DNA of 23,472 nucleotides from Candidatus Baldrarchaeum yapensis (GTDB taxonomy: Archaea; Asgardarchaeota; Baldrarchaeia; Baldrarchaeales; Baldrarchaeaceae), in the NCBI GenBank assembly GCA_016840465.1, contig JAEOSH010000032.1, forward strand, positions 1-23,472, given 5' to 3'. Numbering within the stretch: position 1 is the first letter of the stretch; each line of letters opens with the position of its first letter. Below the pieces are notes generated by a model. The model had not been told where the DNA came from. It searched no databases and saw nothing but the letters and a program-made list of their open reading frames with translations. Shown here one piece after another: positions 7,281 to 21,918 of the stretch. A program made the translations under genes and the position numbers.

Positions 7281-7631
7281 ATGAAGGCATGGGAAATAAG
7301 CGAACTCCTTAAGGAGCAGGGCTACCGGTTGCTCGATATTTACAGGACGAAAAACGCGGACATACTGAGGGTGCAGAATATCTCCACCGGTGAGGTCTTT
7401 AAGGTGCGAATTTCGGGCTTTAAGGAATCGGTAACCCCTGATCAACTGCTGGAACTCCTCAAAAAGCAGAGGATAAAATTGGAGGACGACAAGAAGGCGT
7501 GGCTCGAGAGAATTAAGAAAAAGATGAAAAAGGTCAGAATAGTCGGAAGGAAAGAAGAAAGGAAGAAGGAGGAAAAAGCGGAAGAGGTTGAGAGGAAAGA
7601 GGAGGAAAAAGAGGCGGGCGAGGAATCATAG
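7281..7631 (+). CDS. Hypothetical protein with a Lys/Glu-rich tail
   Basis: SD GGAGGT lies 7 nt before ATG 7281; a compact N-terminal domain is followed by a highly charged low-complexity tail. Confidence 0.7.
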   Translation: MKAWEISELLKEQGYRLLDIYRTKNADILRVQNISTGEVFKVRISGFKESVTPDQLLELLKKQRIKLEDDKKAWLERIKKKMKKVRIVGRKEERKKEEKAEEVERKEEEKEAGEES

Positions 7632-8006
7632 CCACGCGTCTATCACATTTATCGGAACTGCGCGCAACACTATGGCGTACTCCCCATTGCTTATCGCAAC
7701 GCGGTTTCCATGGCCAAGAACCCAGAAAATGTTTCTCCCGAGAACCTTTTCCGCCCTCCTCACAAGATCGTACCCCACCGCGAGCCCATCCCTCAGCAGA
7801 ACAACATACTCCTTTCCGTCAATCTTAACCCTCGCGCTTTCACCTCTCCCCACAAACCTGATTCCCCCGCGCTTCAGCAATGCGACAACCTCCTTATGAG
7901 GCATTAATATGGCGTCTTCTCGAAGTGAGTAGATCCCGCCGTTTGCGCATTTCACCGGCGCGAATATTCTTCGAAACCTCTCAACACACCTGATATTCTC
8001 TCGCAT
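7626..8006 (-). CDS. Hypothetical protein, last gene of the minus-strand chain
   Basis: ATG 8006 overlaps the upstream stop (TGATG); 126 aa ORF with no recognised family. Confidence 0.65.
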   Translation of the reverse strand: MRENIRCVERFRRIFAPVKCANGGIYSLREDAILMPHKEVVALLKRGGIRFVGRGESARVKIDGKEYVVLLRDGLAVGYDLVRRAEKVLGRNIFWVLGHGNRVAISNGEYAIVLRAVPINVIDAWL

Positions 8007-9544
8007 CACTTCATCCCTACCCTCATTGCCTCCAGCACTGCTTCCTCTACGTCCTTTACGGTCACCTTCCTTCCCCTAACCCTCTCACGAAGTATTCTCT
8101 CAATGGCAAATCTCACACGTGACCTTATGAAGTGAGGTACTCTTGCCAGCACGCCGTTCAGCCGCTCTAACGCCTCTTCCTCATACATTAGGCCTTCCTC
8201 CGACCGGATATCCTCTCGTGGATGGCTCCGCTTGTACGCATACACAAACTTGACGGTTTCCTCCCACACCCTGTGGAGAAGATAGGAGACCCCACGGATC
8301 CCCCTGAACGGCGCATCTAGGTATCGACTTGAGAAGTACCTCGCCGGTTCACTTGCTGGTATGAAACTACCAATACCGGCCTCCTGCGAAGCCAAGTACT
8401 CCGTGAATCCACCAAATACCATGAACGGGGACGCGCTCTTCAGGGAGTCGACTATCTGCTCCTTCCCCGGCATGACTAGAACCTTAGTGCCACCAAGTTC
8501 CCGTTCTCTGAAGAACCCTACAAGCGCTTCATGCATGCCGTTCTTTATTCCAATGACCGCAAGTGACATCCATAGATCATCCGAGAGAACCCTCGAGAGC
8601 CCATAGGCCAGCGTGTTCGATCCGAAAACCGCAACCGGGCTGTCCGCAATAGTGAACCCCGAAATGTCCATGTCATCTATGACACTCGCGCCCCAAACCC
8701 TCATTTCCCGAGCCAAGAACTCCTCCACGCGTTTCGAAATACTAGGGAAGTACTCCTTCAACCCTTCGAGAAACTCCATCGTTCCCTCGATGCCGAACGG
8801 CACCTCGGTGTAATAGGCGATGCCGAACTCCTTTTCCAGAAAGCGTGCAGCACTTTCTCCAAAGTCGTAAGGATACATTAGTATCGTGAGATCCGCATGG
8901 GGTAGATTTCTGAAATCCTCGATGCCCGCATTCGCAGGGACTATTGCGTTTATGCGCAGATCCACGCCTTTAAGGAGCCTCAAGGTCTCCAGCAGGTCGG
9001 CTCTCCAGTTGAATATCCCCTTTGTTGGCCCAATTATGTTAACACTCGGCTGTTTTCCGTCACCACCTCCACTAGCCTTTTGATCGCAGAACTCCCGTGT
9101 CAGCACATAAAGAGCCTTATCTATTCCGTCATAAAACGTATCACGGAGGGTGTTCGCATAAATGGGCACCACCGGAACCTCCACATCGCACCTCAGGCCC
9201 TCGACCTCGCACTGGAGTATATCCTCACTGATGAGCAGTTCGGTTACGTTAGTCGTAGTCACAACTAAAAGCTCGGGGTTGTAGTTCTTTACCGCCTCTT
9301 TCACGGCCCTCCTCAGTCTATCAAGCCCCCCATGCGCAACGTCAGTCGCCAGCAGGCTTGAAGTAAAAATGTGGCACCCCTGCTTTTCCGCAATCACAAA
9401 CTCGGAGACCGCGTAGTTTGAGCATCCCGACGGACTGTGAATCACGGGAATTGCCCTCTTCATCGATAGTACCACATCACAGATCCCCTGGAAACTGGAC
9501 GATATTACCTCCTCAGAATACAAGCTCCGGCTCACCGATACCAT
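8006..9544 (-). CDS. Nitrogenase-like oxidoreductase catalytic subunit, BchB/BchZ-type, with a C-terminal PCP_red-like domain
   Basis: VIHSPSGCSNY, NPELLVVTTTNVTELL and VNIIGP...D..E..RLL.G..L.IN are component-1 motifs. The C-terminal YEEEALERL...VPHFIRSRVRFAIE...VTVKDVEEA resembles the PCP_red domain. The start is ATG 9544 or GTG 9535. Confidence 0.85.
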   Translation of the reverse strand: MVSVSRSLYSEEVISSSFQGICDVVLSMKRAIPVIHSPSGCSNYAVSEFVIAEKQGCHIFTSSLLATDVAHGGLDRLRRAVKEAVKNYNPELLVVTTTNVTELLISEDILQCEVEGLRCDVEVPVVPIYANTLRDTFYDGIDKALYVLTREFCDQKASGGGDGKQPSVNIIGPTKGIFNWRADLLETLRLLKGVDLRINAIVPANAGIEDFRNLPHADLTILMYPYDFGESAARFLEKEFGIAYYTEVPFGIEGTMEFLEGLKEYFPSISKRVEEFLAREMRVWGASVIDDMDISGFTIADSPVAVFGSNTLAYGLSRVLSDDLWMSLAVIGIKNGMHEALVGFFRERELGGTKVLVMPGKEQIVDSLKSASPFMVFGGFTEYLASQEAGIGSFIPASEPARYFSSRYLDAPFRGIRGVSYLLHRVWEETVKFVYAYKRSHPREDIRSEEGLMYEEEALERLNGVLARVPHFIRSRVRFAIERILRERVRGRKVTVKDVEEAVLEAMRVGMK

Positions 9545-10802
9545 CCCCCTCGAACTTATATTCCAAGAAGGGATCACAAACCAGGTTGAATCTCCTCATA
9601 AAATCACGGAACCTCCTAACCTTCCCATCCAGCTTCCTGACAAAGTCTCTACCCGATTTTATTACACCAAGAAATCCGGGCACGTCCATATTTGCGATGG
9701 AAATCCTCGAAAAGAACCATGCGCCCATGTCGATTGCGAGCGATCCCATGATCCAGTTGCCGATCACGAAATCGAACTCCTCACCAGATACCCTTTTAAT
9801 CGTCTCGTACACGCTCCTCTCTTGATGGAACTCCCCACCGTTCTCCTCTATGAACGATACGTTCTCCCTCGCCAGTGGGGGAGCATACGACGTGAAAACA
9901 ACCGTCTCCATTCCTAGAGATACTGCTATCGACGCAAGGTTCACCTCCCTGCCCAGACTCGACGCTATCAGCACTTTTCTCCCAGACAACTTATCCTTCA
10001 GTTTCTCAACCTCATGCTCCCACCTGTCGAACCTCGTATCTACCTTAACACCCGTAACATCGGAAACCCTCTCGACCGCGAGCCTCGTTGGAGCAGTTCC
10101 ATATGGAAGAACATCCACGTAGGGGATCCCAAATCTCCTCATGATCTCCTTCAGCGCCTCCTCCGCAAAGACGTGCAGTGGTATGTTTACTCCGGCAAGA
10201 GGTGCCCTAATGATTTGATCTATTGGTGAGCCCTCGGATGACACGATGGCGGAATTCAACTTCATCGGTTTAAGAATCTCGGACATGTGGACCCTCCCGT
10301 GGAGCGTGGCATATCCCAATATGTTGAATCGGGTTGCTTCCGCCCCCTCCTGCGCGTCCATTAGGTCAATAAGCGACTTCAGCGCCTCTCCAGCCCCCAT
10401 GTACTCAGCCCTGCAGTTATATCCGGCCTTCACAACAATGACGGGAACTCCCGTCTCTTCGGATAGTTGCTCCGCTACTGACATCAGATCCTCGTTTATT
10501 GTGAGAGACGTGCATCCCTCAATTATTGCCACGGCCTTGGGCCTCTTTCTCTCGATTAACTGCCTAATTGCCTCGTATACCTTATCCACCGCGCCGAATA
10601 TAGCCTCCCTTTCATTAAACACCGTCCCCGGAGTGTAAAGAGGGGATCCCAGACGTGCGACTGAGATGTGACAACGCAGGTTTGCAACACAGTCGCGTGC
10701 CGCGTGTATGTAAACCAGCAATCCGTTTACCTTTGACAGAAAGAATGTCGCATAGAAGGTGGAGCACATACCCTCGGGTTGAGGCTCAAAATATCCTCTC
10801 AT
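9513..10802 (-). CDS. Nitrogenase-like oxidoreductase catalytic subunit, BchN/BchY-type
   Basis: Cys13 (EGMC), Cys38 (HAARDC) and Cys97 (IEGCT..I.EDL) with spacing 25 and 59; 429 aa; ATGA overlap with the Fe-protein gene. Confidence 0.85.
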   Translation of the reverse strand: MRGYFEPQPEGMCSTFYATFFLSKVNGLLVYIHAARDCVANLRCHISVARLGSPLYTPGTVFNEREAIFGAVDKVYEAIRQLIERKRPKAVAIIEGCTSLTINEDLMSVAEQLSEETGVPVIVVKAGYNCRAEYMGAGEALKSLIDLMDAQEGAEATRFNILGYATLHGRVHMSEILKPMKLNSAIVSSEGSPIDQIIRAPLAGVNIPLHVFAEEALKEIMRRFGIPYVDVLPYGTAPTRLAVERVSDVTGVKVDTRFDRWEHEVEKLKDKLSGRKVLIASSLGREVNLASIAVSLGMETVVFTSYAPPLARENVSFIEENGGEFHQERSVYETIKRVSGEEFDFVIGNWIMGSLAIDMGAWFFSRISIANMDVPGFLGVIKSGRDFVRKLDGKVRRFRDFMRRFNLVCDPFLEYKFEGDGIGEPELVF

Positions 10803-11692
10803 ACCACCTCGACCCCCGCGTACGTGAACCTCAAAAGATCTCCATATGGAATCGGGGTGGGTACCACCTTCAGGTTATTCGAAAGGACCTTTTCCGCGAG
10901 TTCCCTGAAGATCCTCACCGCATTAGAGTCAGGGAATGCTTCGAGAACGGTTTTGCCCAGCTTATCCGCCTCCAGAACCTCAGGCATTCTGGGCAAGATT
11001 CCTATGACGTTGGCGCCCATCAGAGATGCAAACTCCTCTATTATCTCCCTCTCCCCAGGCACGCCCCGCATGTTGCCTATCAATCCCCCGAGCGCAACCC
11101 CATGCCTACTATACCTTCTTATTGCCGCACATAGGTTGTTTGCCGCATACAGTGACATGAACTCTCCCGATGTTACAATGTAAACCTCACGGGCGAACCC
11201 TCTCTGCATGGGCTGTGCAAAGCCCCCGCAGACGACATCTCCTAGGATGTCATAGATCACCACATCGATCTTCAGCTCCTTGAAAACGTCCTTTGCCCTC
11301 AGGAACTCAAGCGCCGTTATTACGGCTCTTCCTCCACAACCCACGCCCGGCTCGGGCCCACCGCTTTCGGCACAAAAGACCCCGGCAAATCCCTCCACTA
11401 TCACCTCGTTCAGATCCACCCTGTCGAAGTCCATGTCCACTTCGCGCAACTTGTCCAGGATTGTCGGGATATGGTTGCTACCGGTTAGTAGCCGAGTGCT
11501 GTCCCTTTTGGGATCACACCCCACTTGGAGTACTCGGAGCCCCCTTAATGCGAACGCCGCAGACAGGTTGCACGCTATTGTCGACTTTCCGATACCCCCT
11601 TTCCCGTAAATTGCAATCGCCCTTGGCTCTTTCTCCTCAAACCTCACGGGTTTGATTCTCCTTCTGAGAATAACACATGGGGACTCACACAT
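10799..11692 (-). CDS. NifH/BchL/BchX-family Fe protein (ATP-dependent reductase)
   Basis: YGKGGIGKST, QVGCDPKRDST, ESGGPEPGVGCGGR and YDILGDVVCGGFA; both 4Fe-4S Cys are present. The start is probably ATG 11692, after GGAGGTG. Confidence 0.95.
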   Translation of the reverse strand: MCESPCVILRRRIKPVRFEEKEPRAIAIYGKGGIGKSTIACNLSAAFALRGLRVLQVGCDPKRDSTRLLTGSNHIPTILDKLREVDMDFDRVDLNEVIVEGFAGVFCAESGGPEPGVGCGGRAVITALEFLRAKDVFKELKIDVVIYDILGDVVCGGFAQPMQRGFAREVYIVTSGEFMSLYAANNLCAAIRRYSRHGVALGGLIGNMRGVPGEREIIEEFASLMGANVIGILPRMPEVLEADKLGKTVLEAFPDSNAVRIFRELAEKVLSNNLKVVPTPIPYGDLLRFTYAGVEVV

Positions 11693-13253
11693 CTCCATCA
11701 CCTCCCGACTTTTTACCCTTATACTCATAATACGAGTGAAGAGCGCGAGAACCCTTCTCGGTGAGATAGTACACCCTCCTGACCAGCTTCCCTATCTTCT
11801 GCTCAGTCGGGTGGACGTAACCCTCCTCCTCCATCTTCTGAATGAGGCGAGCACAATACGGAACGTCAAGGTCGAGAGTTGTCGCAATGTTGAACAGAGA
11901 TAGGCCGGGGTACTCCTTAATGAGATTTAGAACCTCCGCGGCGCTGTCCGCATCTGCTCCAAAGTCCATTAATAGAAGGGGAACGGGGGGATGCCCGGAG
12001 CAACTTTGCACGACGACCTCCGGGAACAAGTACGTGACCCGAGAAAGTATCTGTTCGTCGGTGGATGCTGGGATCTCCGCTAGGGATCTGTCCACCCTAA
12101 CCAAAAACGGTTCGGAGAAACCATATCTGAACACCACTGCATGATACGGCTCCAAGTTCTTAAGATAGGACATCTGGTACAGCCTTCTTCTGCCCTCGGG
12201 CGCATGAATTCCTATTGCGAATTCCCTCAGGTTCAGCACGTCCGCAACTATCCTCTGCTCGATCCTCGTGCCCACCTTAAATGATATACGGTTCCCTATC
12301 TTTGCAAAGAGTGAGGGGTGGACAAGTCCCGGTGACGAGGTTGTCAGGAGAACAAAATGCCCTCTGGAACGGAGTTCATCCAGATATCCTAGGAGTTCGA
12401 CTGCGCTCTCATGTCTGGTGCCCCTTGAAAACAAATGGTGACACTCGTCCAGCAACAAGACGATATTCTCACGAAGACCCGAGGCGAGGATTTTAATCAT
12501 GAATATCACCTCTACGAGACTTAAAACCTTGGATGAAAGTTTAGGAACCTCTATAACGACGCATCGCTCGGCGAGTTCTCTGATGCCGATTGTCTGCTCC
12601 CGGCAAAACATTCTAGCAAGAGGAGGTACCGTTAAAACTTGGAGTTCTTTTTCTAATGCTGAGATGAGGTATGCAACCCTCGGACCCTCGGCTCCGGATA
12701 GCGATGACAGTCTCTCCCTCAATTGGAGGAGAGTCGGCGTGGGATCCTCCTCATATGCATCATATAGAATTTTGAGAAAGATCCTCCACGCATCGGGGCT
12801 CATCTGAAGCACCGCCGCAAAGATATTCGCAACATGCAGTGCATAGTCCTCCCTTTTTGCGCCTTCGGTGTCGAGGGGGTTTAACACGAACGTTTCGCCC
12901 AAACGCAGGACCACAACCTCGGAATTCAGTCCGTGGAGCCTTCTGTACTCGGCATCCGACGTTACCACTATGAACCTGTAACCTCGGTCATGAAGCCCTG
13001 AAAGAATCTTCGCGCAGAGAGCATACCTTTCGATGGAGGTTCCCGCCATTACTAGCGTTCCGTGTCTCAATTCCTCAAGTGTAAAGCCCGCCGCCCCACA
13101 TGGTTCAAAGTTCTCTGTTTCTATGATCTCGCCTACCGCAACGTCGCATGAGACGTGAGAGGGGGTGACATATTCTACCGGAAGTTCCGGCGGCATCATC
13201 TTCACAGAGAACGTCGGAATTTGAAAGAACCTCAAAACCTCATCTCCGCTCAT
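11685..13253 (-). CDS. HerA/VirB4-like protein with a degenerate Walker A and a C-terminal winged-helix domain
   Basis: HGTLVMAGTSIERY at the Walker A position, FIVVTSDAEY, LNPLD, Walker B LLLDECHHLF and VLLTTSSP. The C-terminal LSLFNIATTL...KMEEEGYV...YYLTEKG is a wHTH. The start ATG 13253 overlaps the upstream stop (TGATG). Confidence 0.8.
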   Translation of the reverse strand: MSGDEVLRFFQIPTFSVKMMPPELPVEYVTPSHVSCDVAVGEIIETENFEPCGAAGFTLEELRHGTLVMAGTSIERYALCAKILSGLHDRGYRFIVVTSDAEYRRLHGLNSEVVVLRLGETFVLNPLDTEGAKREDYALHVANIFAAVLQMSPDAWRIFLKILYDAYEEDPTPTLLQLRERLSSLSGAEGPRVAYLISALEKELQVLTVPPLARMFCREQTIGIRELAERCVVIEVPKLSSKVLSLVEVIFMIKILASGLRENIVLLLDECHHLFSRGTRHESAVELLGYLDELRSRGHFVLLTTSSPGLVHPSLFAKIGNRISFKVGTRIEQRIVADVLNLREFAIGIHAPEGRRRLYQMSYLKNLEPYHAVVFRYGFSEPFLVRVDRSLAEIPASTDEQILSRVTYLFPEVVVQSCSGHPPVPLLLMDFGADADSAAEVLNLIKEYPGLSLFNIATTLDLDVPYCARLIQKMEEEGYVHPTEQKIGKLVRRVYYLTEKGSRALHSYYEYKGKKSGGDGDV

Positions 13254-14008
13254 CACGATCCCCCTTCTACCCCTCTGACCACGCATAACACCGCCTCCCT
13301 CAGTTCTTCACCACGCAAAACCCTCAACTTTGTGTGAGGGAAACCGCTCAGGAACAGGGACTTTATCTTTGAAACCCTCTCCCTGACCCTTTCCGCGCAC
13401 TCCACGAGACCTTTCTCCGAATTACCCGTTTCGTATCTGGTCAATAGAAGCATACGACATCTCCAGACGCCTCCGATGGATGTCAGCAAACTCTCCCTCG
13501 CCTCTGACATCTTTCTCTTCAGTTTCTCTTTGTACTCATCCGATAATTCGGGCTCCCTCAAAGCCTCCTCCGGGCTCAGCGGCTCCTGGATGAACACATA
13601 AACAAGTGGTATCCTCTCCGCATACGCGGACCTTATGAAAAATTCAAAGTTCCCCCGCACACCTATCGGTATCCTCTCAAGTTCCAGACCGCCCACAGCA
13701 ATTACTTTTGACCCCTGTCTGAAAAGTATCACATCCTCGATAATCTCCCCCTGCGGCATCCCGTCCGTACCGGAGATGGCAAACTTGCCACTCCTATCAT
13801 TGATTATGCTGTTAATGACGGATGCCGATAAGACGCCGAACAGTACACTTATTATAAGCGCGCTTGGACCCGGAAGCACATTCTCCAGCGCGTAAGACGC
13901 CAGGATGAACATCAGCAACCCTACCCATACACATACCAACCTGTAATTGGAAGAGCTCCCGCCACTATTCGGTTTGCGAATATGAATCCTACCCGCTACT
14001 CCTTCCAC
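13253..14008 (-). CDS. Membrane protein (2 TM plus a soluble domain), possibly VirB3/VirB4 N-terminal-like
   Basis: Two hydrophobic helices near the N-terminus are followed by an alpha/beta domain ending in KLRVLRGEEL. The gene is coupled to the HerA-like gene. The family assignment is tentative. Confidence 0.7.
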   Translation of the reverse strand: MEGVAGRIHIRKPNSGGSSSNYRLVCVWVGLLMFILASYALENVLPGPSALIISVLFGVLSASVINSIINDRSGKFAISGTDGMPQGEIIEDVILFRQGSKVIAVGGLELERIPIGVRGNFEFFIRSAYAERIPLVYVFIQEPLSPEEALREPELSDEYKEKLKRKMSEARESLLTSIGGVWRCRMLLLTRYETGNSEKGLVECAERVRERVSKIKSLFLSGFPHTKLRVLRGEELREAVLCVVRGVEGGS

Positions 14009-14288
14009 CCGCCACCACCCCCACTAACACAACCATCATCAGGGAGAGAATCAGCGCGTTGACGGACAGCGATAGGAGAAGATCCGTGGATACGGTGGGC
14101 CGCACAAGTAGGTGCATGAAGTCTATGACCAGCACAAGCGCGATTAGCAAAGATGACTTGAGCGGACCGTACCTGCCTCTCGATCTAATTACCGTTATTA
14201 ACAGCCATGCGCTACCAAACAACCACAGATTCTCCAGCACGAACTTGAACAGCATCACATAAATTACGAGTTCCATGAAACTCGCCAT
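13989..14288 (-). CDS. Small hydrophobic membrane protein (about 3 TM)
   Basis: 99 aa and almost entirely hydrophobic; SD GGAGGGG; overlaps both neighbours. Confidence 0.7.
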   Translation of the reverse strand: MASFMELVIYVMLFKFVLENLWLFGSAWLLITVIRSRGRYGPLKSSLLIALVLVIDFMHLLVRPTVSTDLLLSLSVNALILSLMMVVLVGVVAGGRSSG

Positions 14289-14662
14289 CCCATCCCCTCC
14301 TTCTCACAAGCGTGCGCCATCTCGCCCACTATCCACCTCAACAAGAGTTCAGACCTCGTGAAAATACGCACCCTGACGGCATTGTCACCTGCCGGGAGAA
14401 CTTTAACACGAACAGGATCGTTAGCTCTTCCATTCGTCACTCCGTCTGCACCCAAGTTTTTCACTACACTTTCGACAACGCCCCTCACCCTTTCCGCATC
14501 GGCTCCCCAGATGGTCAGTTCCGTCCTCCGATCGTAAACGCATATTTCGCTCAAAACATCATTAGGGCGCTTGGTACTTCCCCTGATCGATCTTACGATG
14601 AGTAAAAACATCACGGCGGAGTAAAGTGCAATTGTCAGGTTAATCGCGTCCACTTCCACCAC
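14264..14662 (-). CDS. Small membrane-anchored protein (1 N-terminal TM)
   Basis: SD GGAGGTG before the GTG start; N-terminal hydrophobic helix; overlaps the helicase stop. Confidence 0.7.
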   Translation of the reverse strand: MVEVDAINLTIALYSAVMFLLIVRSIRGSTKRPNDVLSEICVYDRRTELTIWGADAERVRGVVESVVKNLGADGVTNGRANDPVRVKVLPAGDNAVRVRIFTRSELLLRWIVGEMAHACEKEGMGWRVSWNS

Positions 14663-16766
14663 TCAGCACCTCCAGCAGTTCTCCCGCAAGGTGAGAGGTG
14701 TTTAGATACCCGCACAGTTCGCTTATTGCTCTGAGGGCATGGAGGGACCACCTGATGTAATCTATGAGTTCTTCGAAGTCGCCGGGCGGAATCTCGAATC
14801 TCACCGGGATTTCCTCCACGCTTATTCTCCCTTCATAAACTTCCAGAAGTGCGGCATGGAGTTGCGGAGGTACTCTTCTGCCCTCCTCGGATAAGAAACC
14901 GCAGAATCTTCTGATGAAGTCATAAACGTCTCCGCTGAACCTGCTGGAAAGAGCGTGCATCGCAACCGCAGTGCGCGGTCTGAGGTACAATTTTATGACC
15001 AGCTCGCCGAACCTCGTGACCTCGAATGCGGTAATGTCGGCGTCCTCAATCTGCTTGACCAGGCCCCCACGCATTAGGAAGTCCAAAGCGCTCCCCATGC
15101 CCAGTCCATCAAGAACTATGCCGATGCGATCTCGAAGATTTTCTGCAACATACATTGCGAGGCCTACCAGATGCCTACACGGGGTTGTACGTCTCATCTT
15201 CGAGAACTCAGAGCACTCGCACCAGGCGCCGTTACGTGAAATCGTGCACATTCTCCCATTCACAATTCCCTCGATCCTCCTACCATCTGCCTTCGTGATC
15301 ACGACTTCTCCACTGATTTCGTGAGATTCGTCCCAGTCGAGGAACCTCGTTTTGCCCGTTAAGAGTATTTTCCTTGAAATCTCAATTGCGGGTCTCTTGC
15401 GCCCCCAAAGTGTGCTTCTAAGGAACTCCACCAGATCGTCGATTGTTGCGCCTTCCGAGTCGTATATTGCAACGAGGAGCAACTCCTCCATAAGGTCTCC
15501 GTTCTCCAGCTGGCTCTCCACATTCTCATACCTAGGAGTCTGCCGCCCATCACGGAACAGCACACTTCTGAGAAGTTCTCTCTCCTGATCGGTGTACACG
15601 AGTATGTAGGCATGTCCACTGCTGTCAAATCCGGGCCTCCCCGCCCTCCCCACTATTTGGAATATCGTGTTTGCGCCTAATCTCCGGTACTCCATCCCAT
15701 CCGGCGTGCGCCTCACTACCACCAAGTCCCGCAGAATCACATAGCGTGCGGGCATGTTTATTCCCGCCGAAAGGGTGGTGGTGCACACGAGAACCTTCAA
15801 TAGCCTTTTCCTGAACGCGAGTTCTATTGCCCTTCTCAAATTCAGAGAGAGGCCCGCGTGGTGAAAGCATACCCCGGAGGGGGCCACTCTGAAGGCCCTC
15901 CTTGCAAGGGAACTCCTATCTCCCCCCGTAGCATTATCCAGAATTTTGCGAATGCGCATTCCAACCTCATCGTCCACGTGGTCCTTTAGGATCTCGCCGA
16001 GTTTTTCGGCAAGACTCTCGGCATCCCTCCTCCTTGCAACGAATACCAGCACCTGTCCCTCCTCTGAACAGCGCTCCCTCAGAAATTCCTTAATGAAGGC
16101 ATTCTTTTGCCGCGTGACCGTGATGCTTATCTCGAGCGGCACCATCCTAGCATGCGACTCTATCAAGGCACAATTCAACCATGACGCTATCTCATGTGGG
16201 TTTCCGATACTTGCGCTCAGCGGAATCATCTGGATATCGTTTTTGCGGGCCCTGAGCCTAAGCCTTGTCAGTATGCCTTCCAGCCGTGGACCCCTTTCAG
16301 GGTCACTGAGCATGTGCACCTCATCGATGACCACCGTTCTCAGCATGTCGAGAACGGCTGGGATTTGCCTCGTCATGGAGTCGAACTTCTCGTAGGTCAG
16401 TATCATAACATCGGCGTCGAGGATGTCTGAGGGGAATCTGTAGAAATCTCCCGTCGACATCACTATCCTGAGCGAGCGCGTCCTGCAAATCTCAACCATA
16501 TCATCGTACTTCTCGTAGGCCACAGACTTCAATGGAACTATATACGCCGCCTTTCCCCCGCTCAGTGCGCTGTTTATACATGCAATCTCGCCCAGGAGCG
16601 ACTTGCCCGATGCGGACGGCGAACAAATCATGACGTTGCGTCCTCTAAATACTCCCAGTTTCACTGCCGTGGACTGCACCGCGTTGAACCCCATCACTCC
16701 CCTCGCTGTCAGTATTTCGGCAAGTTCCCCGTCTAATCCGTAATTTACCGCTTCCTTAACCCTCAC
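14640..16766 (-). CDS. Ski2/Hel308-like SF2 DEAD/DEAH-box helicase with an inserted SWIM zinc finger
   Basis: SPSASGKS, IDEVH, LSASIGN, FHHAGL, TTTLSAGINMPA and GRAGRPGFD helicase motifs, plus CEC-x12-CRH (SWIM). The start is probably GTG 16766. Confidence 0.92.
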   Translation of the reverse strand: MRVKEAVNYGLDGELAEILTARGVMGFNAVQSTAVKLGVFRGRNVMICSPSASGKSLLGEIACINSALSGGKAAYIVPLKSVAYEKYDDMVEICRTRSLRIVMSTGDFYRFPSDILDADVMILTYEKFDSMTRQIPAVLDMLRTVVIDEVHMLSDPERGPRLEGILTRLRLRARKNDIQMIPLSASIGNPHEIASWLNCALIESHARMVPLEISITVTRQKNAFIKEFLRERCSEEGQVLVFVARRRDAESLAEKLGEILKDHVDDEVGMRIRKILDNATGGDRSSLARRAFRVAPSGVCFHHAGLSLNLRRAIELAFRKRLLKVLVCTTTLSAGINMPARYVILRDLVVVRRTPDGMEYRRLGANTIFQIVGRAGRPGFDSSGHAYILVYTDQERELLRSVLFRDGRQTPRYENVESQLENGDLMEELLLVAIYDSEGATIDDLVEFLRSTLWGRKRPAIEISRKILLTGKTRFLDWDESHEISGEVVITKADGRRIEGIVNGRMCTISRNGAWCECSEFSKMRRTTPCRHLVGLAMYVAENLRDRIGIVLDGLGMGSALDFLMRGGLVKQIEDADITAFEVTRFGELVIKLYLRPRTAVAMHALSSRFSGDVYDFIRRFCGFLSEEGRRVPPQLHAALLEVYEGRISVEEIPVRFEIPPGDFEELIDYIRWSLHALRAISELCGYLNTSHLAGELLEVLSGGSGRD

Positions 16767-17631
16767 GTTCCGCACCTCCCCAAATCCTTAGAATGGATTG
16801 CAGTATGCTTTCTCCGATCCTTGCATATCTGCCGTTGGATTTTGCGAAGAGCAATTCTGAGAGTTTGCTTCCAGATCCGTGGCCGTCGGCCGCTCTCAAG
16901 AACATCACATGAAACTCGGAGTCCCGATCACATCTCATGAGCAGGAACGTGGAACTGGGGTGGGCGAGCATTTCTTCAACATCTATTGGCACCACTCGCA
17001 GGTTCATAAGATTATCCAAATCGATCTCCGCCTCGCTATAATCGGATCTGCCATCTACGATTTCCAGTATCATCTCCATTATTGTCGAAATATTCCGATT
17101 TCTATCGACATCTCGTATTAGGAGGGCCTTCGGCCGGGCGCATCCGTCATTCCTTATCAGCATCACTTCTGAGTTCAGCACTCTCGCGATCGAAAGAACC
17201 TCCTCTACGGAGGCTCTGGATTCTACCGGTATCACTAGCTTTCCGTGGTCTCCTCTCATCAAGATCGCAATTCCATTCCGTGCAATCAGTACTGTTTTCC
17301 TTCGGGACATCTCGTACACTATAACATACGCGACGGTGAGGACCAGGGGCAGGAGGATAAGCGGGTTTTCCCGTATGAGGAGGAACGTTATGTGAACGGA
17401 GAACAACAACATTATCAGCGCCGGTAGCCTGCGAGAAGATGCATACACGCTCGTTCCAAAGATCATCACCACATAGAATAGAATTATCGGAAGATGCGCG
17501 CTCCAAATTCCAAATAACGCCAGTCTTGTCAGCATAATAAGCGATACGATTCCCTCCTCCACCACCGACAGCAACCATAGGATGAAGACTGCCCCCAGCA
17601 TGTACCTGATGATCACGTCATTCGTCGCCAT
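16756..17631 (-). CDS. Membrane protein (about 4 N-terminal TM plus a soluble domain)
   Basis: Hydrophobic first 110 aa; SD-like GGGGGTGG before ATG 17631; overlaps both neighbours. Confidence 0.72.
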   Translation of the reverse strand: MATNDVIIRYMLGAVFILWLLSVVEEGIVSLIMLTRLALFGIWSAHLPIILFYVVMIFGTSVYASSRRLPALIMLLFSVHITFLLIRENPLILLPLVLTVAYVIVYEMSRRKTVLIARNGIAILMRGDHGKLVIPVESRASVEEVLSIARVLNSEVMLIRNDGCARPKALLIRDVDRNRNISTIMEMILEIVDGRSDYSEAEIDLDNLMNLRVVPIDVEEMLAHPSSTFLLMRCDRDSEFHVMFLRAADGHGSGSKLSELLFAKSNGRYARIGESILQSILRIWGGAEREG

Positions 17632-18280
17632 TTTCGCCACCCCCTAACGAGTAATTTATCCGCACTCCCGCGCTCCTCCCCGATAATTTCTCAATGACCG
17701 CCACTCTATGACCTCCGGCCGTGGAATCCCTCTCTAAGCGTATGACCGTACGTGCCAGCTTCTTCAGGGGTAGTAACAATCTCTGGTGGTGCAACTCGGA
17801 GGAGTTGAATTGGGCCAGCGCGATAATTGAGGTTCCTCTCCTGAGCAACAGCACGAGTATGGGGATCATTTCCTCTAAAACTTTAAACGCAGCCTTGAAC
17901 CCGTACCGGTAAATATTCCACCTTATCAGTGAGGAAATCGTGTCTATCACTATCAGAATGCCCGAGCCGGATGCTGTGGAACGAATGCCATCGAGTATTG
18001 AGAGCAACCGTGAAACTTCCGGGTTTCCAGTTATGACTGTTATTCTTCTGAGCAATTCGGGATTCTTCATGAAGCGGCCACGCAGGGCGCGGGGATCCAA
18101 CTTCAAATCTACATCTAGGTACATGGTCCTGATGTTCATCCGTGCCGCATGTATCGCCATTCTAAGGGCAATCATCGTTTTCCCGGTTCCGGACTCCCCG
18201 TATATCATGCAGATCGACGGATGAGCTATCCCTCCGTCCAGAATCTCATCAAGTTCCGGAACTCCCGTGCTGAGGACCAT
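17618..18280 (-). CDS. RecA-superfamily ATPase (RadB/aRadC-like, no N-terminal domain)
   Basis: LSTGVPELDEILDGGI, YGESGTGKT and LIVIDTIS; about 220 aa. Confidence 0.88.
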   Translation of the reverse strand: MVLSTGVPELDEILDGGIAHPSICMIYGESGTGKTMIALRMAIHAARMNIRTMYLDVDLKLDPRALRGRFMKNPELLRRITVITGNPEVSRLLSILDGIRSTASGSGILIVIDTISSLIRWNIYRYGFKAAFKVLEEMIPILVLLLRRGTSIIALAQFNSSELHHQRLLLPLKKLARTVIRLERDSTAGGHRVAVIEKLSGRSAGVRINYSLGGGENGDE

Positions 18281-18281
18281 C

Positions 18282-21200
18282 CTAGCCGCCCACACCAAGC
18301 CTCCTCACCACTCCTACCAGTTTTCTCTTGAAGAGGATGGAAGAACTGGCGATTATCAGCGCGGGGGTTGCTATCACGGCAATCTCTATAACCTCCCAGT
18401 TCTGCTCAGTAGACGGTGCTTCTCTCTTCATTTCAGTGGTGTGGAGGGTTTCATTTCCAACCTCTTGTTCGGTACTCGACTCATTCGTCTGCGTAGTAAA
18501 GTTGCTCTCTGCTACCTCTCCGTTCTGCTCCGTTTGAGGGGTTTCCTCCCTCATCACTCGTACTGTTACGAGGGAGGACGTCGCGGGAAGAAACGGATGG
18601 GAAACCTTCACGAGAAACGTGTAATTTCCGGCATTTAAGTTGCGCAGCGGAATTGTCACCTGATATTTGCCAGGGGCGGTTTGCATTCCGCATGAGGATA
18701 TATTGTACCCGATTATTGATGCGTTGACCGTGCAGTCGCCGAGCAATAGACCGTTATACGTTACGGACACATTTAGCATGACATATTCCGTGCCATTGCC
18801 GCGAATACTTATCACTCCGTTGCCCTGTACCGTTATCGAAATTTCGGGAGGTAGTGCTGTGCTTGATGAGTTCTCAACGAGCGGAAGCACTCCCAAGGTT
18901 TTCAATGCCCTCACAACGATCATCAATTCGACCAGATCCCGCAGATCTGGGTTTCTCAGTCTGGAGAGACAGTAATATAAAGAGGCATTCAGTTTGACAA
19001 AGGACTCTCGAAGGAAGGACTCCTCCCGGGCGCGCGTGGAATTCAGCGTTGAAATTATTAGCACCTTCAGTGCAGATGTGAGGGGGTCTTGGCACCTGCA
19101 CGATACAACATATCTTTCGAGCGATGTGAGGTTCACGCCTCCCGCAACCCCTATTGTCATAATTATTTCTGTGGCGAAATACTCCGAGATCAGGGGTGAG
19201 GACAAAACTGGCGGGATCCACTCGCTCTCTGGGAATGCGCCCGTCTCGTTCTGGTGGGTTCTCAGGTATTCGAGGAGTAATCCGGTGAAGTTATAGAGGT
19301 AGTCGAAGAGCGCGTCCATCTCCACGCACGTGAGGACCGCCATTGTAGCGCTGTAGATCGTGACATATCTTTCATCGGCGGGCACGAATGTCCATTTTCT
19401 GGTACCGCCGGCCAGTTCTCCGTCGGTAACCCTACACCTTCGGATCTTTTCCATCAATTCATCCCTATATTCGAACTCCAGCAAGAGAATGTTGTAGGAC
19501 CTGATTCCGAAGAGTGCGGTCCCAACACTGGGACTTCCGAGGCCGGTGTCGATTGCAATATCAAAGGGCATCCTCATGAATCGGGTGCCGGAGGATGAGG
19601 AAGTCCCGAAGAACAGGCATATTGGGAAGTCCCTGAACCCGTCCCCGGACATGTATGTGTTCTTCAAGAACTCGGCAAGGGAAGTTTTGTTCACGGCATC
19701 CAGCATCCCAATATCGCTCAGAGTTTCGATCACAAAGTACGTCGTTGCAAGGGAACCCTCCAGTTTGCTATATGGGAGGAATCCCCCTTTTCCTCTCCAG
19801 CAGGACTCCAGGTACGACCTTACGGCTCCAATGTTCACCGCTGAGAGAACATTGTATGCGCGAAGGGCGAGAAGCGCCGCCGCGGTGTCGAATACGGTGG
19901 GAAATATTATGTCATCGGATGAGAATCCGCCGATCTCCGTCTGTCTCTCCATTATCCAATCGATAACTCTTGCTAGGAAGATCCTGTCCAGTATTTCCGA
20001 TATTTTGCTGTCGTTGAACCTCCGTAGCCTTTCGACGCAGAGGACGGCGTATGCGTTCTGATAAAGCGTATCATATGATGTGACGTTGAACAGTTCATCC
20101 AGCAGGTAGCAATCCACGAGCCATTCGGCCGTGGCTGAAAGGTTCACGATATCGAGTACATATTCGGGGCCCAGAACCTCCGATAGGGTCAGGAGGGTGT
20201 CTAGTGCGAGGAAGGACGACTCGAAGAATCGATACGCGTAGTAACCGTATGCGAACGATGGAATTCCCTCCTTGGGCAGAAAAGCACCATAGTATTCGGA
20301 CGATTCGTCGGAGACCTGCAACCTCTTTATATAGCTAACGACGGAAGCCGCCATCGTTCCGTTGACTTCACCGAGTATCATGAGCGCCTTTATGGCGGCC
20401 CATGTAGCCTTAACCTCCATGGTTCTATCTATCGTCGTTTCGTAGGCAAATTTTCCGGAGGTGCTGTTATATGCGGAGGAAAGGAAACATGCGACCTTGC
20501 TTTTATTTACTAAGTCGAGGGCGCCGAGCATTTTCAACAACATGATCACAAGGGCCGTTGTGAGAACCTTCGACTCTGCCGGGGGTTCCTGGTAAAAGGA
20601 GCCCTCATCGTCATGATATAGCGATAAAAGCCAGCTAACGGTGGCGTTCTTATCGATTAGGGAGGAGTTAATTCCGCAGGTCTCCATGCAGAGCCATCCA
20701 TAGAACGTAGATACTATGTCGGGTTCCGAGAGACAGGGGAAGCCTCCGCGCCCATGCCATTGATCTAACTGCAACTTTGCGAGAGATTGTGCCAGTAGGT
20801 CGATGATGGTTTGTTCTCTTAACCAGAACAGCGAATTTATGAGGAAATACTTCCCCTCAAGTGAAAGATCGCCGGGTTTTTCAACCCCCACCCACAGAAC
20901 CCTAACATCTCCTCTCAGCGACACGGCTGATGCCGCGAGCGTGGAGTTTTTCATTATAAGGATCGGAGGCGTGGTGTTATTCAGCAGATCGGAGGCATTC
21001 GCCACCACGCATTCGGACCTAGGATTAACGATGTGCATATGAGCTTTGGACCCGCATATGTCAAATGGTGCCCTGAATATCGAGAGGTTACGCGCGTAGG
21101 AGGGAATGTAGAGGGCGTCGGGGGCGGTTATGCGTAACGGGGAGGTTGAGGTTACGAGCAACGTTATGGATTCACCGAGAAGTAGGGTTGGGGCCGAGAT

Positions 21201-21518
21201 GTTAAGGGCTTCTAAACTTTGGGATAGAGGACGGGGGATCACAATAATGTTATCGGAGGAGGCGTATTCGGTGAGGTTCTCTGGACTCGTTATTAGTGAT
21301 GATATTCCAAACTCTGAGAAGAAGCGGGCCCATGTGGCCGCGTAAGGGTCGCTGGTATTCTCGGATAAGATTACAACTTCCGGTGCCCGGTTGTTTTCGA
21401 CCACCGCCCGCTGTGTTATACTGTTTGCGGGAGGGACTTCATTGGCAATAATGAGTATCAATATTAGAGAGATCACCGATATTACATGAAATTTAAACCG
21501 ATGTTTTACGGATTTCAT
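18282..21518 (-). CDS. Large secreted, C-terminally membrane-anchored glycoprotein with prenyltransferase/squalene-oxidase (alpha/alpha toroid) repeats
   Basis: N-terminal signal peptide; about 9 GGF/GSF/GAF...T..A...L..LG repeats; Ig-like beta region; Thr/Glu-rich linker; C-terminal TM followed by a basic tail; about 30 N-x-S/T sequons. Confidence 0.82.
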   Translation of the reverse strand: MKSVKHRFKFHVISVISLILILIIANEVPPANSITQRAVVENNRAPEVVILSENTSDPYAATWARFFSEFGISSLITSPENLTEYASSDNIIVIPRPLSQSLEALNISAPTLLLGESITLLVTSTSPLRITAPDALYIPSYARNLSIFRAPFDICGSKAHMHIVNPRSECVVANASDLLNNTTPPILIMKNSTLAASAVSLRGDVRVLWVGVEKPGDLSLEGKYFLINSLFWLREQTIIDLLAQSLAKLQLDQWHGRGGFPCLSEPDIVSTFYGWLCMETCGINSSLIDKNATVSWLLSLYHDDEGSFYQEPPAESKVLTTALVIMLLKMLGALDLVNKSKVACFLSSAYNSTSGKFAYETTIDRTMEVKATWAAIKALMILGEVNGTMAASVVSYIKRLQVSDESSEYYGAFLPKEGIPSFAYGYYAYRFFESSFLALDTLLTLSEVLGPEYVLDIVNLSATAEWLVDCYLLDELFNVTSYDTLYQNAYAVLCVERLRRFNDSKISEILDRIFLARVIDWIMERQTEIGGFSSDDIIFPTVFDTAAALLALRAYNVLSAVNIGAVRSYLESCWRGKGGFLPYSKLEGSLATTYFVIETLSDIGMLDAVNKTSLAEFLKNTYMSGDGFRDFPICLFFGTSSSSGTRFMRMPFDIAIDTGLGSPSVGTALFGIRSYNILLLEFEYRDELMEKIRRCRVTDGELAGGTRKWTFVPADERYVTIYSATMAVLTCVEMDALFDYLYNFTGLLLEYLRTHQNETGAFPESEWIPPVLSSPLISEYFATEIIMTIGVAGGVNLTSLERYVVSCRCQDPLTSALKVLIISTLNSTRAREESFLRESFVKLNASLYYCLSRLRNPDLRDLVELMIVVRALKTLGVLPLVENSSSTALPPEISITVQGNGVISIRGNGTEYVMLNVSVTYNGLLLGDCTVNASIIGYNISSCGMQTAPGKYQVTIPLRNLNAGNYTFLVKVSHPFLPATSSLVTVRVMREETPQTEQNGEVAESNFTTQTNESSTEQEVGNETLHTTEMKREAPSTEQNWEVIEIAVIATPALIIASSSILFKRKLVGVVRRLGVGG

Positions 21519-21918
21519 AATATACACTCTCCTGGGACGGTAATGCTTCTTTTAACCGCGATATGTTTCGGGATATTCCATCAGACCCACTAATTGCTTG
21601 GTATTTTACCAGATGCGCCGCCTGTCGACTTTTTTTCACAAGTGGGGTTGATGCAGGGGGTTTATATAGGGTACTACAATCATGTTACTGTGCTGACGAA
21701 AATACGTGATTTTACCGCGTTCCGGTTATATACAGTTTTATTTTTGAAACTTGAGTAAAAAATTTGAAATTTTGTAATATTATGCATTTTATTCGGTATA
21801 ATTTGATGCCGGAAGACGAGACCCGGTGTACCATTCTTGCAAAAATTTCAAAAACTGCGAGAGAGTGGTACGCGAGGTTTTGCAATTGTTCTTGCAGCAT
21901 GAAGTTGCATGCCAACCC

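Follow-up and report, generated by a model that had tools for sequence, protein, structure and literature searches.

The subject of this analysis is a 23,472-nucleotide stretch of DNA, the window, from Candidatus Baldrarchaeum yapensis, an archaeon of hydrothermal sediment placed by GTDB in the Asgardarchaeota, Baldrarchaeia (assembly GCA_016840465.1, contig JAEOSH010000032.1, positions 1 to 23,472 of the forward strand). Three adjacent genes in the window, H, N and B, encode a nitrogenase-like (NFL) enzyme which is neither a dark-operative protochlorophyllide oxidoreductase (DPOR) nor a chlorophyllide oxidoreductase (COR) and represents a rare, separate lineage that shares one clade with BchB and BchZ. 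A single [4Fe-4S] cluster, held at the N/B interface by three Cys of N and one of B, is the best reading of the ligand pattern and a probable one; this confidence covers the cluster and the architecture, not the substrate. The ligand pattern alone is expected and plesiomorphic. The interest lies in a rare, complete archaeal system, in a host that lacks tetrapyrrole synthesis and in a gene module of a DNA-handling type, at a time when the functions of uncharacterised nitrogenase-like systems are the field's main open problem (PMC13474568, a 2026 review).

The three open reading frames (ORFs) overlap or abut on the minus strand, in the order H-N-B, and H has both Cys that would hold the cluster of an Fe protein:

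10799 to 11728, minus strand: H (P0003), NifH/BchL-type Fe protein, longest ORF 309 amino acids, PF00142 (Fer4_NifH) E 1.9e-96
11336 to 11338, minus strand: H cluster Cys131, equivalent to NifH Cys97
11228 to 11230, minus strand: H cluster Cys167, equivalent to NifH Cys132
9513 to 10802, minus strand: N (P0001), N/D-type catalytic subunit, 429 amino acids, PF00148 (Oxidored_nitro) E 3.7e-48
8006 to 9577, minus strand: B (P0002), B/K-type catalytic subunit, 523 amino acids from the GTG at 9577, PF00148 (Oxidored_nitro) E 1.6e-55

In an alignment with NifH, BchL and BchX, H displays the P-loop GKGGIGKS, switch I and switch II, all invariant; these motifs, the two cluster Cys and the two co-encoded PF00148 subunits are the features by which the NFL superfamily is recognised. 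All NCBIfam equivalog cut-offs are missed widely, and H-N-B is therefore an NFL system outside every curated family. H scores 340.7 bits with the nifH model (cut-off 394) and 324 bits with CfbC, also below cut-off, and is thus closer to NifH and CfbC than to BchX. The best model for N is nifE, at 81 bits vs a cut-off of 505.1, and the BchN model TIGR01279 gives 48.9 bits (cut-off 419.95). For B, the BchB model TIGR01278 leads with 171.4 bits (cut-off 490.35), the BchZ model TIGR02014 yields 98.9 bits (cut-off 529), and the NifN equivalog model 28 bits (cut-off 326.8); the curated cut-off of CfbD is likewise missed widely. The C-terminal extension of B resembles those of BchB and BchZ, with a PCP_red match of 20 bits, below the Pfam threshold and no more than a lead. 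A swapped assignment of N and B was considered and ruled out: the three-Cys subunit aligns with NifD, NifE, BchN and BchY, and the gene order is H-N-B.

The starts of two of the proteins call for care. B is numbered here from its longest ORF (GTG 9577), the probable start being further downstream, at ATG 9544 or GTG 9535. The initial annotation of this DNA counted from ATG 9544; hence, the Cys of HSPSGC is Cys52 from GTG 9577 and Cys41 from ATG 9544, and what that annotation called B Cys22 is Cys33 here. The longest ORF of H overlaps the upstream gene, and translation may in fact begin at Met11 or Met13. This ORF opens with a 35-residue N-terminal extension (11624 to 11728, minus strand) that contains a Cys-x3-Cys motif (MCESPC); one or two Cys also open the H proteins of relatives (TCK..TCKG). 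For BchL, the review describes an N-terminal tail with an autoinhibitory role (PMC13474568).

The ligand positions were compared with annotated genes of two plasmids, from Roseobacter litoralis for BchN, BchB, BchL, BchX, BchY and BchZ and from Serratia for NifH, NifD, NifK, NifE and NifN, with A. vinelandii (Av) numbering for NifK residues; one of the alignments held 149 sequences. The positions that matter, all on the minus strand, are as follows:

10764 to 10766, minus strand (TGC): N Cys13, in the column of NifD Cys62, NifE Cys37, BchN Cys29 and BchY Cys76
10689 to 10691, minus strand (TGT): N Cys38, in the column of NifD Cys88, NifE Cys62, BchN Cys54 and BchY Cys101
10512 to 10514, minus strand (TGC): N Cys97, in the column of NifD Cys154, NifE Cys124, BchN Cys115 and BchY Cys159
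9422 to 9424, minus strand (TGC): B Cys52 (HSPSGC), the proposed fourth ligand, in the column of BchZ Cys35, BchB Asp36, NifK Cys95 (Av; Cys94 in Serratia) and NifN Cys44
9497 to 9499, minus strand: B Ser27 (ISSSFQG), in the column of NifK Cys70 (Av; Cys69 in Serratia); Thr in relatives
9248 to 9250, minus strand: B Asn110 (TTTNVTELL), in the column of NifK Cys153 (Av; Cys152 in Serratia) and BchB Cys95; Asn in all five family members
10173 to 10175, minus strand: N His210 (NIPLH), at or beside the position of NifD Cys275, a ligand of the iron-molybdenum cofactor (FeMo-co)
8675 to 8677, minus strand: B Asp301, in the column of BchB Asp274

Translation and a codon-by-codon check place every residue named in the initial annotation at its codon, and its assignments of these residues to cluster positions hold up in the alignments. 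N Cys13, Cys38 and Cys97 make up three of only 13 columns that are invariant across the family, BchN, BchY, NifD and NifE. The Cys of HSPSGC falls in the column of the BchB Asp and the BchZ Cys, and an independent HMMER comparison with solved BchB chains sets HSPSGC opposite HAPQGD. Ser and Asn stand, as had been proposed, at the first and third P-cluster positions of NifK. All four putative ligand Cys are invariant among family members that share 46-56% identity, and the pattern is therefore not due to chance. By contrast, the column of B Asp301, invariant in all eight aligned B/K-type sequences, does not discriminate between families.

P-clusters are held by 3+3 Cys and the DPOR cluster by three BchN Cys and, at the position of NifK Cys95, an Asp of BchB; for COR, mutagenesis, electron paramagnetic resonance and metal analysis implicate three BchY Cys and the BchZ Cys at the same NifK position, a ligation that is not structurally established (PMC13474568). 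The initial annotation, which had drawn on the same chemistry, set the enzyme apart from nitrogenase and DPOR, and rightly so. Only four of the six P-cluster Cys are present, and Cys52 takes the place of BchB Asp36, next to the three N Cys that DPOR would share. Nor is there a Cys where nitrogenase binds FeMo-co: HMMER pairs NifD Cys275 with N His210 and MAFFT, two residues away, with N Phe212, and neither places a Cys in that stretch, while the column of NifD His442, the second FeMo-co ligand, holds N Ile367. The predicted ligand set rules out both a canonical P-cluster with 3+3 Cys and the Asp ligand of DPOR.

The proposed match to COR fared less simply. N Cys13, Cys38 and Cys97 together with B Cys52 occupy exactly the positions implicated for COR (three BchY Cys and BchZ Cys35), and this part stands; as a diagnosis, it does not. 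In A. vinelandii NifEN, a [4Fe-4S] O-cluster is held by three Cys of the alpha and one of the beta subunit (PMC11168457), and the columns of NifE Cys37, Cys62 and Cys124 and of NifN Cys44 coincide with those of the four Cys here. The nearest uncharacterised relatives of B (P0013-P0016 and P0020) have a single Cys as well, in the column of B Cys52. Judged by these columns, 3+1 Cys is not a COR signature, because NifEN and the nearest relatives have it too. The single all-Cys cluster at the interface, also put forward in the initial annotation, finds support in the ligand columns and appears likely.

Structure prediction is in line with this architecture. An AlphaFold2 (AF2) model of B from a 124-row alignment has a predicted local distance difference test (pLDDT) score of 90.5; a version from four family sequences reached 41.6 and was discarded. 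The fold is of the BchB type: the top 14 matches in the PDB found by Foldseek are all BchB or ChlB, with template modelling (TM) scores by target of 0.72-0.87 (at least 0.82 for 13 of them), ahead of NifK, VnfK and NifN, and the best solved relatives of B in a phmmer search are likewise BchB chains (E 3.8e-28). When N, a 4Fe-4S cluster and B were modelled together, the interface score (ipSAE) was 0.64 vs 0.01 for the best control; the mark applied to this score is reached by 58 of 80 solved complexes and by 2 of 110 mismatched pairs. Agreement between runs covers 70% of contacts or more, with a partner pLDDT of 83 or higher. The modelled interface includes N residues 9-14, 35-41, 43-45 and 97-98 and B residues 49-55 and 109-111; the B loop 49-55 touches N residues 12-14 and 97, and the contacts of lowest error include N97-B49, N13-B51 and N13-B55. 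This outcome shows likeness only and may reflect the model's memory, because NifDK and BchNB complexes have already been solved.

The position of the family relative to the chlorophyll-pathway enzymes was assessed with IQ-TREE, using 43 B/K-type rows rooted on NifK/NifN. The family is sister to BchZ + BchB (94/81 support) and falls outside the BchZ clade (100/99); all three lie, together with two single-Cys outgroup lineages, inside a starred 95/89 clade. Approximately unbiased (AU) tests reject neither family + BchZ (p 0.18) nor family + BchB (p 0.15), and the three therefore form a trichotomy. N groups with BchN + BchY, with 85 in the Shimodaira-Hasegawa-like approximate likelihood ratio test (SH-aLRT), in a grouping that joins long branches. 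On the tree, all lineages that surround the BchB clade show Cys at the ligand position, which makes the BchB Asp the derived state, and 3+1 Cys looks ancestral for the clade of BchB, BchZ and the family; the pattern therefore says little about the substrate. By grouping with the two reductases of the chlorophyll pathway while retaining an all-Cys set, the family helps to polarise the Cys-to-Asp change of DPOR.

The family is rare. A profile of four B members, searched against 1.84 billion representatives in an exhaustive search that covered the B-type subunit, recovers one 50%-identity cluster at 1047 bits, the next match scoring 189 bits; a word-indexed search of 5.8 billion clusters finds three relatives with 53-55% identity. 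The only named genome with the family is a Candidatus Baldrarchaeota (Asgard) metagenome-assembled genome, and within the phylum it occurs in two of 400 genomes, those of the host and one order-mate. A literature search found no published description of this lineage. A second NFL type was seen in the same phylum: a shorter (~420 amino acids) PF00148-type protein, which scores 88-112 bits on the family profile, occurs in two further genomes from the order and in another from the phylum (L014, G007:C90; L015, G006:C18; L016, G076:C2).

Among known systems, COR (BchX/BchY-BchZ, Group V NFL) has identical ligand columns, BchZ also being without Cys at the other two NifK columns; it belongs to the same clade, in which a sister relation between the family and BchZ is among those not rejected, and BchZ, like B, has a C-terminal extension. 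However, B is only ~25% identical to BchZ and far below the BchZ cut-off, H resembles NifH and CfbC more than BchX, and the host is a non-phototrophic archaeon which lacks a tetrapyrrole pathway and in which the gene context is entirely different. DPOR (BchL/BchN-BchB) provides the best match to B among solved proteins, both in sequence and in structure, and shares the three N-subunit Cys and the Asp in the BchB Asp274 column, yet differs in the fourth ligand, in Asn110, which replaces BchB Cys95, and in the curated scores, which are missed. NifEN resembles the system in how its cluster is ligated, by three alpha Cys and one beta Cys, NifN having Gly in the remaining two beta columns; it belongs to another clade, its NifE and NifN scores are missed, and the host genome contains neither NifB nor a nitrogenase that it could serve.

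A fourth comparison is with the Group VI NFL (NflHDK), uncharacterised enzymes of Elusimicrobia, Gracilibacteria and Myxococcales, which keep no more than four of the six P-cluster Cys and lack both FeMo-co ligands and NifB; a simple [4Fe-4S] cluster is predicted for them (PMC13474568). The Cys, FeMo-co and NifB features all recur here, and NifH trees show Groups V and VI as siblings. Unlike the present system, which has an archaeal host and was compared by published description, Group VI is bacterial and is defined by many co-occurring radical-SAM genes; no radical-SAM domain was found in the 23-kb window.

What the enzyme could act upon is constrained by the host genome (2.27 Mb, a draft that is 96% complete), whose archaeal identity is indicated by ribosomal protein S8e, a control that is positive in archaea only. 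N and B are the only PF00148 genes in this genome, H is the only full-length NifH-like gene, and NifB was not found, the best match scoring 27.5 bits vs a cut-off of 343.65; for these reasons, L-cluster and FeMo-co chemistry is excluded. No HemB (PF00490), HemC (PF01379) or TP_methylase (PF00590) of any kind was detected in the host genome, and HemB was not found in four order-mates (G005-G008) either. An endogenous tetrapyrrole substrate, such as COR, DPOR or CfbCD would use, is unlikely, because HemB, HemC and all tetrapyrrole methylases are absent. Among the absent PF00590 proteins would be the diphthine synthase that is expected in archaea. The host does have at least seven B12-binding domains over cut-off and CbiB, which implies that it salvages corrinoids.

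Together, H, N and B encode a complete two-component NFL reductase. The first component would be an ATP-hydrolysing Fe-protein dimer with a [4Fe-4S] cluster of its own; the second would be of the N2B2 type, each N/B interface most likely containing one all-Cys [4Fe-4S] cluster (N Cys13, Cys38 and Cys97 with B Cys52), and would have no P-cluster, FeMo-co or L-cluster. By homology, ATP-gated electron transfer would run from the cluster of H to the interface cluster, which would in turn reduce an organic substrate at the site equivalent to that of FeMo-co or protochlorophyllide; this substrate may be linked to the helicase/ATPase module encoded by the neighbouring genes. Since the host cannot make tetrapyrroles de novo, a non-tetrapyrrole substrate appears somewhat likelier than a salvaged corrinoid or another imported tetrapyrrole. 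A more specific proposal is offered tentatively, as one whose chances are well short of even: an undescribed archaeal lineage of the DPOR/COR clade reduces a non-tetrapyrrole within a 12-gene module that includes Hel308-like, HerA/VirB4-like, KaiC/RecA-like, small membrane and clamp-domain-like proteins. If true, this would give nitrogenase-like enzymes a new biological role and reveal what the clade of the chlorophyll reductases did outside phototrophy, whichever the direction of descent. The occurrence of the system in Asgard-type archaea that are unable to make tetrapyrroles breaks the rule that this clade acts in tetrapyrrole biosynthesis, and a system that is small, complete and conserved is amenable to direct testing after heterologous expression.

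The strongest competitor to a non-tetrapyrrole substrate is that the enzyme is a functional analogue of COR, DPOR or CfbCD that reduces a C=C bond in an acquired tetrapyrrole, either a salvaged corrinoid or an imported ring of another kind. In the BchB/BchZ clade, all characterised enzymes reduce tetrapyrroles, and so does CfbCD; the fold of B is closest to BchB; and sub-threshold PCP_red matches are present both in the C-terminus of B and in a 147-amino-acid protein encoded next to H and N in relatives. The host, as its B12-binding domains and CbiB indicate, uses corrinoids, the authors who described Group VI remark that scavenging can stand in for synthesis, and the genes of outgroup P0015 lie beside matches to PF01488 and PF01578, families that can be haem-related. 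Set against this are the absence of HemB, HemC and all TP_methylase genes from the host, and of HemB from its four order-mates; the absence of tetrapyrrole or cobamide genes from both the 23-kb window and the syntenic loci; and the wide margins by which B and N miss the BchB, BchZ, BchN and CfbD cut-offs. On balance this alternative is possible yet doubtful.

A second alternative concerns the cluster itself: a larger or non-canonical cluster at the interface, or a second metal site, would use residues beyond the four Cys, namely N Cys44/His45, N His210 and B Cys33. Two further family-invariant Cys, missed in the initial annotation, are involved:

10668 to 10673, minus strand: N Cys44-His45 (motif NLRCHIS), family-invariant, not at a canonical ligand position, aligned beside NifD Arg96
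9479 to 9481, minus strand: B Cys33, family-invariant, not in a P-cluster column, inside helix 28-38

NifD Arg96 and Cys275 line the FeMo-co pocket. Six Cys are then invariant in the family (N Cys13, Cys38, Cys44 and Cys97 and B Cys33 and Cys52), N 43-45 lies inside the modelled interface, and N Cys44/His45 and His210 align beside NifD Arg96 and at or beside NifD Cys275, respectively. However, two NifK P-cluster columns are Ser/Thr and Asn, the genome has no NifB for complex clusters, related 3+1 systems hold plain [4Fe-4S] clusters, and B Cys33 is mid-helix and not on the list of modelled interface residues. B Cys33 was also examined as a stand-in for NifK Cys70, as the check on the initial annotation called for, and was ruled out: it lies six residues past the column of NifK Cys70, in the middle of a helix, and B position 27, which does align with that column, sits just ahead of helix 28-38 in the AF2 model. 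A non-canonical site is accordingly improbable. The family-invariant residues N Arg43-Cys44-His45, N His210 and B Asp301 are, from their aligned positions, candidate pocket residues, and the first two of these are candidates for either the substrate pocket or an additional metal site.

Several points count against a single interface [4Fe-4S] cluster in a separate lineage that acts on a non-tetrapyrrole. The type of cluster was read from sequence alone, and the ligation of COR, with which it is compared, itself derives from mutagenesis and is graded as unknown or implicated (PMC13474568). N Cys44, at the modelled interface, and B Cys33 have no assigned role and might be part of a non-canonical site. 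N is very divergent, as its best NCBIfam score and its long-branch grouping with BchN + BchY attest, and the AU tests leave the branching order of the family, BchZ and BchB unresolved. What is said of the substrate depends entirely on pathway genes being missing from draft genomes.

That the genes are an inactive relic, or encode a structural or regulatory ATPase complex without redox catalysis, would fit the lack of a recognisable substrate pathway and the ATPase-like proteins among the operon partners, but is very improbable given three intact ORFs, catalytic motifs of H and four ligand Cys that are invariant at 46-63% identity, and a gene order kept on independent contigs.

The conserved linkage of H-N-B with a helicase/ATPase module is the best clue to function. 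H, N, B and a gene for a 127-amino-acid protein form the end of a gap-free chain of 12 genes (7626 to 21527, minus strand), in which they are joined by a prenyltransferase-toroid protein (1081 amino acids), a KaiC/RecA-like ATPase, an unassigned protein, a Hel308-like helicase, three small proteins and a HerA-like protein with a winged helix. BLAST finds homologues of nine of the 12 genes, in unchanged order and at 27-64% identity, on independent metagenome contigs (L001 1-11910, L002 and L003); one of the matches is weak. The gene that closes the chain is itself conserved:

7626 to 8009, minus strand: conserved 127-amino-acid protein (P0012), directly downstream of B, 38% identical to the gene at the same position in a relative

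The Atlas model of this protein resembles a single DNA-polymerase-III beta-clamp domain of viral proteins (TM 0.57-0.62), which is no more than a lead. PADLOC recognises no known defence system, only generic matches to an SF2-type helicase (HamB-like) and weak ATPase matches, and Rfam and tRNA scans of the window give no matches.

In two loci of relatives, the extra 147-amino-acid gene mentioned above is inserted between H and N (L001:8297-8740 and L003:2663-3106); it has no counterpart in the window operon, and tblastn finds no copy in the host genome. Its sub-threshold PCP_red match, at 23-26 bits, and a motif, IPPFVRAFAKRKV, that resembles the C-terminus of BchB are recorded as leads only. 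In the nearest outgroup, P0015, on bacterial-looking contigs (L017:5913-10068 and L018:248-3559), H, N and B are followed by a 171-amino-acid gene with a Shikimate_DH (PF01488) match, and L017 also has, immediately upstream of H, a gene that matches PF01578 (cytochrome c assembly). Such surroundings, unlike those in the window, could be tetrapyrrole-related.

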